Shown here: in pieces, positions 5,576 through 52,693 of the stretch
Numbering within the stretch: position 1 is the first letter of the stretch
Layout: each line of letters starts with the position of its first letter
DNA from: an uncultured Candidatus Saccharibacteria bacterium
GTDB lineage: Bacteria; Patescibacteriota; Minisyncoccia; Phycocordibacterales; PALSA-1337
DNA length: 64,000 bases
NCBI GenBank assembly: GCA_964470105.1
Contig: CAYXZI010000001.1
Span: forward strand, 37,521-101,520
Direction: 5' to 3'
Position numbers and translations under genes: made by a program
The notes under the pieces: generated by a model
Database searches by the model: none
What the model was told of the DNA's origin: nothing
The model's input: only the letters and a program-made list of their open reading frames with translations

Positions 5576-6236
5576 AAAAGTGGAATAGGTATTTGAATGT
5601 TATTTTTAGAGTACCCTCTTGCTTAAACCTTCTTGCAGAAGTTTTCATCTGTAGCTTTTTATCAAAAATCACCTTACCAAATTTAGATACCCTTTTCGCG
5701 GTATCTGTATCTTCACCATAGAAAACTAGTTTAGTGTTATATCCCCCTGCTTTTTTTATAATATCTGCCCGTATAAAATTATTACCACCAATAAGGACAG
5801 CTCCGTGTTTTGTAGACTGAATAATTAAATTCATCAAATGATATATATGTTTCTGAGTAAAGAGAGATACAAATCTAAATACCCTATCTCCATCATGGTA
5901 GTCATATGGCCCAGTTACAGCAACAATACCCTCTTTAAAATTATTTACACCCCTAGATAGCCAGTCTTTATCTGGCAAACAATCAGCATCAATATTTACA
6001 ATTATCTCTCCAGATGCATTCAGTCTTCCACACTCACGCGCCCAAAGAAGTCCTTTACGTGATTCTTTTACAACTTTAATTGGAAATTGTTTAGCGACTT
6101 CATATGTTTTATCCGCACTAGCATTATCAACGACAATTACTTCGAAATCTTGATAGTCCTGAGCTAGAACTGCTTTTATAGTGTTAGCTATACTTTTTTC
6201 TTCATTATGCGCTGGTATGACTACGGATAGTTTCAT
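5553..6236 (-). CDS. Family 2 glycosyltransferase
   Basis: N-terminal VVIPAHNEE, then DNASAD and DAD motifs (GT-A fold). Confidence 0.75.
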   Translation of the reverse strand: MKLSVVIPAHNEEKSIANTIKAVLAQDYQDFEVIVVDNASADKTYEVAKQFPIKVVKESRKGLLWARECGRLNASGEIIVNIDADCLPDKDWLSRGVNNFKEGIVAVTGPYDYHDGDRVFRFVSLFTQKHIYHLMNLIIQSTKHGAVLIGGNNFIRADIIKKAGGYNTKLVFYGEDTDTAKRVSKFGKVIFDKKLQMKTSARRFKQEGTLKITFKYLFHFFKIVLGG

Positions 6237-27271: not shown

Positions 27272-27790
27272 ATGAACATTGTAAATGCGATGCGCATCGC
27301 TAATCGCGCCAAAACACTCAGTGGCGGAAGAAACTACGCCCTCGCGAACATCTTGTTCGCAGCCGTGCTGGAAGTAGTCTTCACCCAGAGGTCAGCGGGG
27401 ACATGGTGTGTTCCTGTCTCGAACCTGGAAAAGGAGGGGGTGACCACAGAGGTTGTCCTGGAAACCCAAGACACCACTGGGGCATGCCATCGTGAAGCCT
27501 ACTATGACCTCTTGGTCGTGGAGTGCCTCAATAAGGAGGGGATCCTTGAAGGGTCGCTGTGCATCCCGTTGCCACTTTTGGATCCTCTCACCCTTGGGGG
27601 TTTGCTCAAAAAAGTTACGATAGGTGCTAAGAGGGACCACGATCGAGATTTTGAGGTGGATAACGCTGAACTTCTCACCCTCTGGGACAGAGTGCTCAGT
27701 GAGATTGATCCGGGGACTCTCCTGGATCTGGCGACAAGCCACCTCACTCCAAAAGCCATGGAGGCTATGGTTGAGGTAATCCCAGTATAA
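27272..27790 (+). CDS. Hypothetical protein encoded in a high-GC island (possible foreign origin)
   Basis: 172-aa ORF spanning a ~55% GC block inside an AT-rich genome; codons favour GC-ending triplets; own promoter and terminator; no recognisable domain. Confidence 0.45.
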   Translation: MNIVNAMRIANRAKTLSGGRNYALANILFAAVLEVVFTQRSAGTWCVPVSNLEKEGVTTEVVLETQDTTGACHREAYYDLLVVECLNKEGILEGSLCIPLPLLDPLTLGGLLKKVTIGAKRDHDRDFEVDNAELLTLWDRVLSEIDPGTLLDLATSHLTPKAMEAMVEVIPV

Positions 27791-29284: not shown

Positions 29285-29361
29285 ATATTGATATTAGCAT
29301 TGAAATATTTGGTTTGGCAATTTATATAACCAGTTGCATAAAATATAATATAGATGTAATA

Positions 29362-29500
29362 CACTCAGCGTCCCCCCAGCCGAAAGGCATTGGAGACATA
29401 AATATCCCTTACGGGATAATAGACCGCTCGCAAGAGCTGTCGAAACCTAGCCGGATGTGTTTCTGTCTGCTGCATCATGTGCGCACGATAGGAACCCCGG
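29362..29500. ncRNA. Candidate structured small RNA (GC-rich intergenic island); orientation unresolved
   Basis: ~140-nt, ~55% GC block between two minus-strand genes with no credible ORF. GNRA-type hairpins (GCC-GAAA-GGC; CCC-GUAA-GGG on the other strand). A 6-bp closing helix AGCCGG/CCGGCT is followed by CTTTTTCTTTGTTTT on the plus strand. Confidence 0.3.
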
Positions 29501-29525
29501 CTTTTTCTTTGTTTTAAAAGTAATT

Positions 29526-38936: not shown

Positions 38937-38943
38937 ACGCTAA

Positions 38944-39825
38944 TTATAGCATACGTTCAGCATCTAAAAACTCATCAAGATGACCCTCAAGTACTTTGTC
39001 AACTTGGGAGGTCTCAACATTTGTTCTGTGATCTTTTACCATTTTATATGGGTGAAAAACATATGAGCGTATCTGATTTCCCCACTCAATAGACGTTGTT
39101 TTACTTATATACATTCCCTTTTCACGAGCGATTCTCTCATCCTCCATTTGTTTAAAAAGTTTACCTTTCAATATATCTAATGCTTTTTCCTTATTTTGGG
39201 CCTGTGATCTTTCTGATGTGACATGTACCGATAATCCAGTCGGTTTATGTACAATTCTGACCGCAGTCTCTCTCTTATTAACATTCTGTCCACCAGGACC
39301 ACCAGATTTCGCAATTGATATTTCTATATCCTTATCAGGTAATTCCATATCAGCGCTATTAGTCTTTTCAAACTTCGGAATTATTTCAACCATAGAAAAT
39401 GAAGTGTGTCGCAATTGCTTAGCATTAAAAGGTGAGATTCTTACAAGTCTATGTACTCCACTTTCGTTCTTAAGAGTTCCATATACATCCTTACCAGATA
39501 TCTCAACAGTGATATTTCTATACCCACCATGATCATTTTGATTTTCATGCACAACTTCCATGCCCCAGCCCCTATTTTCAGCTAATTTTCTATACATACG
39601 ATACAGAATTGAAGAGAAATCCTCAGCATCATCACCACCGGCGCCAGAAAAAATGGTCATAATCGCATTACCTTTATCAAACTTACCTATACCAGACAAA
39701 GCATCTTTCAAATCCTGTAATTCTTTAATCATTCCCTGCGCCTTCTGGGGATTGTTCCAAAAATCAGCTGCTTGCATCGCAGACTCAATTTCTTGTATTC
39801 TATTTTCTGTTTTACTTTTATCCAT
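38944..39825 (-). CDS. prfB: Peptide chain release factor 2 (compact form; no programmed frameshift detected)
   Basis: SPF tripeptide (RISPFNAKQ), GGQ motif ([20 protein letters not shown]), and an RF2-like N-terminus ([15 protein letters not shown]). Only 293 aa; the upstream MGMT-like gene overlaps the start by 8 nt, leaving no room for a frameshifted N-terminus. Confidence 0.8.
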
Positions 39826-40072
39826 TTTGTTCTTTTTTAAGGATTTTTGCCTTTACTAGTACTCCACCACGATTATATCCCCCCATCTTACCATCACTTC
39901 TTATGACCCTGTGACATGGTATTTCGGGATTGAAGTTTTTACTTAAAACCGTACCTACTGCACGTACAGCTTTAGGCTTACCGATCTCCTTAGCTACTTC
40001 TTTATATGTCATTGTGGCACCTTTTGGAATGCCTCTTACAACATCGTATACTAATTCCGTAAACGTTTTCAT
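39818..40072 (-). CDS. MGMT-family DNA-binding domain protein (O6-alkylguanine-DNA alkyltransferase C-terminal domain only)
   Basis: 84 aa; [18 protein letters not shown]...[10 protein letters not shown] has the PCHR active-site motif and the HTH of Ogt/Ada C-terminal domains. Confidence 0.75.
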
Positions 40073-40099
40073 ATTAAAAGATTATCAGATTACAGCGAT

Positions 40100-40136
40100 T
40101 AAATAAAGAAAACAGCCGGACTATGAGAGTCTGGCT
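40100..40136 (-). terminator. Intrinsic terminator on the minus strand
   Basis: Minus-strand hairpin CAGCCAGAC-UCUCAUA-GUCCGGCUG (9 bp including one G.U) followed by UUUUCUUUAUUU (plus coordinates 40100-40111). Confidence 0.6.
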
Positions 40137-40265
40137 GCGAAAGAGTGTCGGTGAGGGGTTAATCCTGGGACCGTGAGCCTATATACGGCCGCATGCGAGT
40201 TGAGCGGGGTCAGCGCTAGATCTCACAAGGTGATTCGTACCACCTCACCGACGAGAAAATAGTAC
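40137..40265 (-). ncRNA. GC-rich structured RNA element (candidate riboswitch/leader or sRNA) between a TATAAT box and the terminator
   Basis: ~130 nt at ~55-60% GC with no ORF. Outer closing helix GTCGGTGAGG (40146-40155) / CCTCACCGAC (40242-40251) encloses nested GC helices. On the minus strand a TATAAT at ~40268-40273 lies just after the upstream gene stop. Confidence 0.35.
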
Positions 40266-40290
40266 CATACATTATATAAAAGTGGTAGCT

Positions 40291-41373
40291 TTATGGTTGT
40301 GATTGATACCATCCAGCTTTAACATCCTTCTTTGGGTCAGCAATCCAAATATTCATATTATATGCAGGCACAGTTGATTCTGCTTCAATTCTCTTAGGTT
40401 TAAGTCTGCCACTATCAGTTGATAGAACTTTATATATAGCGACACAACTCTGTCTATCAGAAATACTGTTTGAATTTTTATCTTTAGGCTCTTCAGTTGC
40501 TTTAACAGTTGTAGCGTTGATGCTTAGTTTCATCTCTGAACACTTAAGCGGTCTCTCAATTCTTGTTGTAAATTTATTATCAGTCGTATCAAGAACAACC
40601 TTATCACCAGAAACATGAATTTTTACTGTATACATCTCACCTGATGGTGTTGAAGGATTATCTCTAATCAAAAGATCAAAACGACTTACTGCAGAAAGAC
40701 CTAGATTTTGACTAGTGTTAGCAGACTTAATTGTGCCAGACAACTCACCACCACCTAAAGCAAGATCAACTGGTGGATATGATTTCATCGCATCAGCACA
40801 TGAAGATATGGCATCATCTCCAAAAAGTTTCTTTGAGATGAGTGGTTTCCCCCTGTCATCATAGTTGTTTACAAAAGTTGAAGCTGTCTTATCTGTATAG
40901 TTTAATACACAGTAGTAGTCAGAATATGTTTTACCATATGTTTTCGCGTAAAAAGAAGGAAGTGTTTCCTTTTTCGTATATGACTCTGTCTCTGGGAATA
41001 GATCGTCGGGGTCAATCTCTTTAGTGTCATCCCTACTTTTAGTTACTTCGTATTTGAGTGGATTAGCTTTTACATACTTAAAAGTTAATCGGGTTGTCTC
41101 CTTGGCACCCTGACTAGCTCCGGTATTAAGTGAATTTAGACCGTTTTGTGTTATCTTGGTTAGATCATAGGTATATGAAGAAGGATATATATCTGCACGG
41201 AATGGCCAGCTCCCTAATGTACGTGCCAATTGGCTATCTGAAGTGACGTTATTTAAAACCCCCGTTATAACACCTCCTTGAGTCAGCCATATTGAAGCGA
41301 TAGCTATAAACGCAAGAACAAAAGCAAATATTGTTTTTACATAATCCCTCTTTAACAACGTTCTTTTTTTCAT
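40291..41373 (-). CDS. Hypothetical secreted / membrane-anchored protein
   Basis: 360 aa with one N-terminal TM/signal segment; Ser/Thr/Asp/Lys-rich; no recognisable domain. Confidence 0.5.
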   Translation of the reverse strand: MKKRTLLKRDYVKTIFAFVLAFIAIASIWLTQGGVITGVLNNVTSDSQLARTLGSWPFRADIYPSSYTYDLTKITQNGLNSLNTGASQGAKETTRLTFKYVKANPLKYEVTKSRDDTKEIDPDDLFPETESYTKKETLPSFYAKTYGKTYSDYYCVLNYTDKTASTFVNNYDDRGKPLISKKLFGDDAISSCADAMKSYPPVDLALGGGELSGTIKSANTSQNLGLSAVSRFDLLIRDNPSTPSGEMYTVKIHVSGDKVVLDTTDNKFTTRIERPLKCSEMKLSINATTVKATEEPKDKNSNSISDRQSCVAIYKVLSTDSGRLKPKRIEAESTVPAYNMNIWIADPKKDVKAGWYQSQP

Positions 41374-46942: not shown

Positions 46943-46966
46943 ATTGTGATTTTAGCACAGAAAATG

Positions 46967-49465
<2,499 letters not shown>

Positions 49466-51881: not shown

Positions 51882-52352
51882 CTATTTTGGTTGAACACAA
51901 TAGTAAAAGTTTGGAGAAACATCATCACAGTATCCACTTGCCTGACCGAGTGGAGCCCCATCAACATCATCTGTTAACACAGAAGGGTTCGGATTTTCGA
52001 GTTTAGCACGCAATACATAGTCTGTTGCATTTGATGATGGAGATGCAACATAGGCATAAGCAGTACCACTATCTGTTGGAACAACCGACATAAAAGTACC
52101 CAGAGTGACTCCCGTACATACAGATGTACTTGTTGTTAGGACTCCTGAAGCAGGATAATTATTACACTTATCAAAAGCTTGCTCTAGAGCTAACTGAATT
52201 TGAGATAGATCAGACACCCTCTTTGCATCTCTTGATTTAGACTTTGCTGTAAAGAAGTTAGCTGACAATACTGCTGTAAGTATTCCTATTATAGCTACTA
52301 CTACTAGTAATTCTATTAAAGTAAAACCTTTATTAAAAAGTATTTTTTTCAT
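51882..52352 (-). CDS. Type IV major pilin (PilA-like)
   Basis: MKKILFNKG|FTLIELLVVVAIIGILTAV; C-terminal Cys pair (CDD..YYC). A TATAAT box sits 7 nt upstream of the ATG inside the inverted repeat TAGGCTA-TAAT-TAGCCTA (possible leaderless start). Confidence 0.8.
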   Translation of the reverse strand: MKKILFNKGFTLIELLVVVAIIGILTAVLSANFFTAKSKSRDAKRVSDLSQIQLALEQAFDKCNNYPASGVLTTSTSVCTGVTLGTFMSVVPTDSGTAYAYVASPSSNATDYVLRAKLENPNPSVLTDDVDGAPLGQASGYCDDVSPNFYYCVQPK

Positions 52353-52389
52353 TAGGCTAATTATAGCCTATATACGTATAAAAACGAAT

Positions 52390-52429
52390 CCCCAGCGCGA
52401 CACCTTTCTGTCAGGTGTCCACGCTGGGG
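52390..52429 (-). terminator. Strong rho-independent terminator (minus strand)
   Basis: CCCCAGCGUGGACACC-UGACAGAAA-GGUGUCGCGCUGGGG (13-14 bp with one bulge) followed by AUUCGUUUUU. Confidence 0.7.
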
Positions 52430-52444
52430 AAATAAGGGCGTTTT

Positions 52445-52693
52445 TCAGCCCGTGACCTCGTATACCGCCCGGAGGTCCTTCTCAACTAGAGCCCTCAATT
52501 CACCCCTGGAGGAGCACACGTACTCCTTCTTGATACCCTCGGGCCAGGCCAAGGTGGCCTTGGTACCTCGAGGCACCGAACCCTCGACTACCGAGTTGAT
52601 CATCTTGTCGAAGACTCGATTTGAGACCTTCTTCTTCCCAAGCGTCGTGGGGGCGACGCTGGAAGCATCCATTACTGCGGCGAAGTGAGACAT
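52445..52693 (-). CDS. Hypothetical small basic protein encoded by a high-GC, GC3-biased gene
   Basis: 82-aa ORF; a hand count gives ~75% G/C at third positions and purine-rich first positions (a genuine coding signature of a high-GC donor); a strong terminator follows immediately; no family recognised. Confidence 0.45.
   Translation of the reverse strand: MSHFAAVMDASSVAPTTLGKKKVSNRVFDKMINSVVEGSVPRGTKATLAWPEGIKKEYVCSSRGELRALVEKDLRAVYEVTG

Follow-up and report, generated by a model that had tools for sequence, protein, structure and literature searches.

The 64,000-nucleotide stretch of DNA analysed here (the window) carries, on its minus strand, a GC-rich block between a gene of 360 codons and an operon that opens with an MGMT-family gene and prfB. 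The block is preceded by a promoter-like box and followed by a hairpin and a T-tract, and this order raises the question of whether it is a regulatory leader of the genes downstream or an RNA gene in its own right. An earlier note had preferred the first possibility, a transcription-attenuating riboswitch or leader of MGMT-prfB-ftsE-ftsX, and had named an independent sRNA of about 160 nt as the alternative.

Patescibacteria (CPR) are uncultivated bacteria with small genomes, and to our knowledge descriptions of non-coding RNAs from them are very few. Our analysis indicates that the block is genuine: a conserved structured RNA with a Y shape, new to Rfam and of an ordinary kind. We consider it best explained, with a probability of about 0.6, as an independent gene for a small non-coding RNA of about 150 nt, read from the minus strand. 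This agrees with the alternative of the earlier note, which is compatible with the data. As a candidate sRNA gene the element is a clean one, its ends and fold being defined, and it can be searched for in metatranscriptomes; it also illustrates that, where mRNAs appear leaderless, promoter, structure and terminator in a row can be mistaken for a riboswitch.

Layout of the element

All the parts on which the earlier proposal was built, namely the stop of the upstream ORF, the box, the GC-rich block, the terminator and the MGMT gene, are present, with minor corrections to their coordinates (Table 1). The 10-bp outer closing helix, P1, was recovered as described; its two strands enclose about 85 nt of GC-rich sequence. 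The resulting domain of 106 nt (minus strand 40252-40147) has 58% GC in a genome of 35% GC. Measured in 100-nt windows, the GC content of the element is 0.52-0.58, compared to a mean of 0.354 for the whole window, and its peak equals the level of the six tRNA genes found in these 64 kb. The folding energy of the domain in the window variant is -40.5 kcal/mol (z = -2.7).

The intrinsic terminator with its U-tract was confirmed as well, with one A.C mismatch in its stem. Owing to this mismatch and to the absence of a -35 box, a promoter and terminator consensus scan had skipped both ends of the element. The TATAAT assigned to the promoter was only partly borne out: the hexamer exists, but at 40276-40271 instead of 40268-40273, and it is not conserved in relatives; the box that is conserved, TGGTACTAT, lies 11 nt closer to the domain. 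No terminator was found between the stop of the 360-aa gene and the RNA element. On the other side, the MGMT-like gene starts where it had been placed and has a Pfam match; it adjoins the RNA as a neighbour and lies outside the RNA itself.

Table 1. Features of the RNA element and of the adjoining genes in the window.
Feature	Position	Strand	Remarks
Upstream ORF (360 aa)	40291-41373	minus	stop at 40291
Extended -10 promoter-like box TGGTACTAT (TGnTAnTAT)	40259..40267	minus	consensus and conservation
Y-shaped structured RNA domain, 106 nt	40147..40252	minus	MFE folds, RNAalifold, pair counts, covariance model R1
P1 5' strand GTCGGTGAGG	40252-40243	minus	pairs with CCTCACCGAC, 10 bp
P1 3' strand CCTCACCGAC	40156-40147	minus	pairs with GTCGGTGAGG
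P1b GGU/ACC	40241-40239 with 40159-40157	minus	extends P1
P2 AUC/GAU	40234-40232 with 40164-40162	minus	
P3 hairpin arm, UGACC loop	40227-40194	minus	
P4 hairpin GGCCGU/ACGGUC, 10-nt loop	40190-40169	minus	
Pyrimidine-rich single-stranded linker ACUCUUUCG, 9 nt, P1 to terminator	40138..40146	minus	
Intrinsic terminator, whole	40101..40137	minus	hairpin 40137-40113 and T-tract 40112-40101
Terminator stem 5' side CAGCCAGAC	40137-40129	minus	
Terminator loop	40128-40122	minus	
Terminator stem 3' side GTCCGGCTG	40121-40113	minus	8 pairs and one A.C mismatch
Terminator T-tract TTTTCTTTATTT	40112-40101	minus	
MGMT-prfB own promoter region	40073..40100	minus	GATAAT 40086-40081, then 8 nt to ATG; leaderless mRNA predicted
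MGMT-family gene, 84 aa, PCHRV motif	39818..40072	minus	ATG at 40072; Pfam PF01035, E = 8e-29
prfB	38944-39825	minus	start overlapped by MGMT 3' end

Fold, covariation and selection

The element is conserved in relatives, a point on which the earlier note had made its case depend: five variants with a common fold were found, all in one clade, namely those of the window (identical in L107-L110), L001, L081-83, L084 and L099. Four variants folded singly gave the same Y architecture, with z = -2.7 for the window and -5.5, -4.7 and -4.9 for the others, and the RNAalifold consensus agrees with these MFE folds. The Y is made of a long P1/P2 stem bearing two hairpins, P3 and P4. The 10 pairs of P1 together with P1b amount to 13 GC-rich pairs, followed by a small internal loop, P2 and the junction. 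In P3, an imperfect hairpin, the tip is GCG/CGC and the UGACC loop is invariant; P4 contains an invariant G-U pair and a loop that varies from 10 to 13 nt across variants.

Standard pairs make up 91.8% of the pair cells in the five-sequence alignment, compared to 33-48% when the 3' partners are slid by 1-3 columns. Changes on both sides were seen at three pairs, one being A-U to C-G in P1 and the other two, in P3, being tied to the alignment register. Two further single changes in P1/P1b lead to U-G and G-U pairs, which on the plus strand would be A.C mismatches, and scores with the covariance model R1 are 90-122 bits for the minus strand versus 15-24 bits for the plus strand. These strand scores and the G-U-compatible changes therefore identify the minus strand as the transcribed one. 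Covariation in the homologous loci fits the fold, but with five variants that are close to each other it is weak and statistically not decisive.

The RNA domain of the window is 72-79% identical to those of the other variants, whereas four-fold degenerate sites in the prfB, MGMT, GAF, PAS and 360-aa genes are 48-63% identical in the same comparisons; the three genes with more than 50 such sites give a neutral benchmark of 52-58%. Again between the window and the others, paired columns are 79-83% identical versus 59-78% for unpaired ones, and paired columns were the more conserved in nine of ten pairwise comparisons. Identity above that of four-fold sites, and higher in paired than in unpaired columns, thus points to purifying selection on the domain. 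The domain evolves faster than the surrounding proteins. Within the linker, ACAC-CUUU is kept in all five variants. As the variants differ by indels of 1, 2 and 3 nt and have no ORF in common, a coding function is excluded; a small ORF of 11 codons in the window variant is not conserved. The idea of a diversity-generating retroelement target was rejected too, the substitutions not being A-specific.

Promoter-like box and terminator

In the four variants with a 5' flank (L099 is cut there), the TGnTAnTAT box ends 6 nt before the first G of P1. It takes the form TGATAATAT in L001 and L081-L084, at the same spacing as TGGTACTAT in the window, and it is kept in L001 even though the flank upstream of it cannot be aligned with the window. 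Judging from its consensus and conservation, this box is the RNA's own putative promoter.

At the other end, the terminator hairpin is retained in five of five variants through different pairing registers, with a T-tract of 12 nt. The register has the A.C mismatch in the window variant, a bulged A in the L081, L084 and L099 types, and eight uninterrupted pairs, two of them G-U, in L001. For the four full-length variants the core of the terminator reached a pair probability of 1.00 alongside P1, and the hairpin was unchanged when the 5' strand of P1 was forbidden to pair. P1 and the terminator share no nucleotides and are separated by a gap of 9 nt.

Distribution of the RNA family

By the relatives of its prfB, the window belongs to the Patescibacteria, class Paceibacteria/Parcubacteria. 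In L001, prfB is 98% identical to that of the window in protein and about 85% in DNA; L081-L084 are four Logan contigs with an MGMT of 85% identity and two RNA variants; L099 is a 1-kb NCBI contig in which the RNA variant is cut at its 5' end, and L107-L110 are four contigs identical to the window. Logan runs in which this organism occurs are SRR10036056-SRR10036063, and those of the sister species SRR24742790/820/824. L001 has no 360-aa gene and there the RNA follows the GAF gene. Every carrier genome has the RNA directly upstream of MGMT-prfB on the same strand, and this constancy leaves room for a role in cis.

Searches with R1 over 110 loci (about 1 Mb of fetched loci), with filters on and off, returned no member outside the clade, the outside matches at E = 0.02-10 being plain hairpins. 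An nhmmer search with the element against the window and 80 prfB loci found only L001. A pattern with 22 specified bases had a single, chance match in a scan of JGI metagenomes, in coding-like and otherwise dissimilar sequence; a 17-base pattern gave eight matches in viral contigs, none of them fitting R1, and blastn against phage and plasmid collections gave nothing meaningful for the element. The RNA is also absent near MGMT homologues of 75-82% identity, 360-aa homologues of 52% and a GAF homologue of 70%. In protein searches, identity falls between the clade and its next relatives from 92% to 73% for GAF and from 84% to 52% for the 360-aa protein. Judged from the fetched loci (about 1 Mb), the RNA family seems to be confined to one genus-level lineage of Paceibacteria. 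Motifs noticed by eye (GGAUUAACCCC, ACACNCUUUC) had suggested L103, L002b and L054a as further relatives, which neither R1 nor local alignment supported; only the stretch of T-tract, promoter and ATG aligns between these loci and the element, with a score of 39 versus a shuffle maximum of 33.

Comparison with known families was similarly empty. Rfam 15 at the gathering score returned only six tRNAs in the whole 64-kb window, and when 40050-40330 was searched at E ≤ 10 nothing meaningful was found, the best matches, GlsR7 and CC0196, having E > 4 as expected by chance. ARAGORN found no tmRNA in the window. The earlier note could not match the element to SRP, 6S, RNase P or tmRNA by eye, and the models confirm that it is none of these. 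Partial likenesses to 5S rRNA, to domain V of group II introns (GCCGUAU...ACGGU) and to the 16S 3' end were discarded, as they had no Rfam support and their motifs are not conserved among the variants.

The downstream MGMT-prfB operon and probable leaderless initiation

From the T-tract to the ATG of MGMT there is one substitution between species, at a distance where neutral sites are about 45% diverged, which makes this stretch the most conserved part of the whole region. It includes GATAAT 8 nt before the ATG, conserved among the RNA-carrying variants; relatives without the RNA have TATAAT or TAAAAT 6-9 nt before the MGMT ATG. Of the 67 long ORFs in the window, only 3 have an SD-like motif in the 18 nt preceding the start codon, and in many first genes a TATAAT-like box precedes the ATG by 6-9 nt (e.g. 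38937-38950, 51882-52370, 46965-46985). From these signals the genome appears to rely mostly on leaderless initiation, and MGMT-prfB would be transcribed separately, as a leaderless mRNA. In a leaderless genome, read-through from the promoter of the RNA would consequently yield an internal AUG without a ribosome-binding site. There are also relatives whose MGMT-prfB lacks the RNA: it adjoins a divergent UDP-glucose dehydrogenase gene in L085 and L087, and in L100 the ATG of MGMT lies 3 nt after tRNA-Thr(CGU).

The two genes at the head of the operon differ in rate. The MGMT protein of the window (39818-40072) is 82% identical to that of L001:5754-6008, versus 98% for the overlapping prfB, a sign of much faster evolution in the small alkyltransferase than in the gene next to it in the operon. 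The RF2 gene (38944-39825, minus strand) encodes only 293 aa in an uninterrupted ORF; the N-terminal segment that carries the programmed +1 frameshift site of E. coli prfB is presumably absent.

The tRNA-Thr(CGU)/prfB junction

The order tRNA-Met, tRNA-Met, tRNA-Asp, tRNA-Thr(GGU), tRNA-Thr(CGU), prfB is widely kept among 80 species-level loci, and in most of them the last tRNA adjoins prfB. The window has instead about 2.4 kb between tRNA-Thr(CGU) and prfB, occupied by a PAS/Zn-ribbon gene, a GAF gene, the 360-aa gene (no Pfam domain), the RNA and MGMT. Where tRNA-Thr(CGU) lies less than 130 nt upstream of prfB (32 loci; start codons and tRNA ends are predicted), the ATG is at most 1 nt from the tRNA 3' end in 14 loci and at most 15 nt in 23, with exact abutment for example at L030:6000/6001, L041:6000/6001, L046:3181/3182 and L056:5997/5998. 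This abutment, together with the near absence of SD motifs, suggests tRNA-punctuated leaderless mRNAs, in which the 5' end of the prfB message would be made by tRNA 3' processing, as in the tRNA punctuation of mitochondria.

Other loci carry noncoding units in the gap between tRNA-Thr and prfB: L002:5540-5752 and 5795-5980, L005:2375-2612, L024:664-925, L045:5570-5935, L054:5677-5830 and 5860-5945, L060:1200-1420 and L103:1238-1475. In L103 the upstream tRNA is tRNA-Thr(GGU) and the downstream genes are MGMT-prfB, and in the other loci they are tRNA-Thr(CGU) and prfB. Each unit ends in a terminator; a promoter-like box was seen by eye at the start in L002, L005, L054 and L103, and several units close with a long terminal helix like that of the window RNA. 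By nhmmer and R1 no unit is related to another or to the RNA of the window, except for the two L002 copies, which are paralogues, and Rfam gave no match in the junction-unit loci searched. The window RNA might be one of a set of fast-evolving, position-conserved RNAs at this junction, either with a common role in leaderless expression of RF2 or as a new ligand- or protein-binding class without an expression platform, a reading that we regard as quite unlikely. The locus, with prfB often at the exact tRNA 3' end and recurrent unrelated RNA-like units, may outweigh the RNA itself in interest.

Alternative explanations

The main rival to a small RNA gene is that the unit is chiefly a boundary between transcription units, a reading that we consider unlikely. 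According to it, the element would have arisen when genes were inserted between tRNA-Thr and MGMT-prfB; it would stop transcription coming from the PAS, GAF and 360-aa genes and supply the T-rich upstream part of a new MGMT-prfB promoter, the Y-shaped transcript being a by-product, or a stabilising or roadblock structure without a role in trans. The lack of any other terminator after the stop at 40291 agrees with this, as does the single substitution in the T-tract-to-ATG stretch, the most conserved of all. The same can be said of the junction as a whole, since prfB ancestrally abuts tRNA-Thr(CGU), and noncoding spacers of 300-500 nt elsewhere carry an unrelated, terminator-ended GC-rich unit and a -10 box before the ATG. 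However, for such a purpose the terminator hairpin alone would suffice, whereas the 106-nt domain is itself constrained (72-79% identity versus 52-58% at neutral sites), has a common fold with compensatory changes in P1 and is preceded by a conserved promoter box of its own. Still less probable, and not supported by the evidence, is the attenuating riboswitch or leader of MGMT-prfB-ftsE-ftsX put forward in the earlier note. On this reading, binding of a ligand or factor to the Y domain would control terminator formation. The promoter-like box, the structured domain, the terminator and the operon do follow each other in the fitting order and orientation, the three-way junction recalls many aptamers and the RNA adjoins MGMT-prfB in five of five variants. 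Attenuation needs competing structures, but there is no overlap between the domain, whose last position is 40147, and the terminator stem, whose first is 40137, and a terminator that forms with probability 1.00 and persists with the P1 5' strand blocked (four of four variants) argues against any antiterminator; P1 with P1b, moreover, is far stabler than a switching helix. The operon itself points the same way: in an SD-poor genome, a conserved -10 box at a distance of 8 nt from its ATG suggests a separate leaderless mRNA, a long-leader transcript would have no ribosome-binding site, and relatives have MGMT-prfB without the element. Finally, no Rfam riboswitch matches the element, which belongs to a single narrow clade.

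We give hardly any credence to a highly divergent housekeeping RNA (a 5S-like three-way junction, an SRP RNA or a 6S RNA, for example) that in Patescibacteria would escape the Rfam models. The length of 106 nt, the closing helix of 10 pairs and the two arms do recall 5S rRNA, and CUGACCCC...AACUC in the element seems to resemble the loop C region of E. coli 5S. Yet the search of 281 nt, which covered 5S, SRP, 6S, tmRNA and RNase P, gave none of these families at E ≤ 10, the junction lies elsewhere than at helix I, its place in 5S, and the other four variants do not keep the 5S-like stretch. A housekeeping RNA, furthermore, would not be limited to one genus-level clade, nor be missing at this place in relatives.

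A proposed stand-alone small RNA gene

For the preferred reading, a small RNA with its own transcription unit, the following course is proposed. Transcription would start at about 40252, some 7 nt past the extended -10 box and on or beside the first base of P1. The RNA is predicted to fold into a very stable Y, conserved across the variants, with its ends locked in a 13-bp GC-rich helix, and transcription would end at its own intrinsic terminator, at about 40101-40108, giving a transcript of about 150 nt. The terminator would also shield from upstream transcription the MGMT-prfB promoter, which begins in the T-tract. Such an RNA would most likely act in trans, by way of a protein partner or of the loops conserved in P3 (UGACC) and P4. 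When the loops were searched against the gene starts of the window, the best duplex had -14.4 kcal/mol, which is within the range of shuffled sequences (mean of the shuffled best -11.2, sd 3.0).

Other GC-rich islands in the window and neighbouring loci

Another GC-rich (0.59) noncoding island lies at 29285-29525 between two minus-strand genes. Its plus-strand reading closes with ...CCCCGGCTTTTTCTTTGTTTT, a terminator-like sequence; Rfam at E ≤ 5 gave only chance matches for it, and it may be another unannotated small RNA. Two islands of higher GC content (0.60-0.64), at 52445-52693 (minus strand) and 27272-27790 (plus strand), each coincide with an ORF, of 82 and 172 aa respectively, in which no Pfam domain was found; a strong terminator hairpin at 52385-52430 follows the first. 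These two islands may be recently acquired genes, or noncoding sequence with a chance ORF.

Beside the homologue of the 360-aa gene (L106:1660-1764; L104:6190-6280), GC-rich sequence seems to split a minus-strand tRNA-Asp-like gene of L106. Such an interruption would fit the group I introns that have been reported from tRNA genes of Patescibacteria (PMC13011429).

Comparison with known RNAs

The element has the arrangement of purine and TPP riboswitches, with a three-way junction closed by P1, then an intrinsic terminator, then genes on the same strand. Unlike them, it has a very long P1 that does not compete with the terminator; and unlike riboswitches in general it has a second promoter-like box between terminator and gene, and no broadly conserved aptamer. 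The resemblance to 5S rRNA (RF00001) concerns its size of about 110 nt, the terminal helix of about 10 pairs, the two hairpin arms and the high GC content, whereas the element gets no covariance-model score at E ≤ 10, has its junction 17 pairs from the ends, has neither loop E nor loop C motifs and is not linked to rRNA genes. With 6S RNA and with Y RNA/YrlA it shares ends paired in a long protective helix, and a shape that is conserved while the sequence changes fast. It differs from 6S by having no central bubble and no Rfam 6S match, and from Y RNA/YrlA by having no adjacent Ro (rsr) gene, no tRNA-like module and no Rfam YrlA match.

Trans-encoded bacterial sRNA genes typically have a sigma-70-type promoter and a Rho-independent terminator, as do the Hfq-independent sRNAs of Firmicutes such as RsaE. 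From RsaE-type sRNAs the element is set apart by the lack of a seed region or target within the window and of an Rfam family, by a 13-bp helix that locks its ends, a feature seen more typically in stable RNAs that bind proteins, and by a host whose mRNAs look largely leaderless, so that the usual mechanism of SD occlusion would not apply. Like the trans-encoded sRNAs as a group, the element is an intergenic unit, predicted at about 150 nt, with its own promoter-like box and a hairpin and U-tract at its end; it has no coding potential, is GC-rich and structured in an AT-rich genome, evolves fast and has a narrow range.
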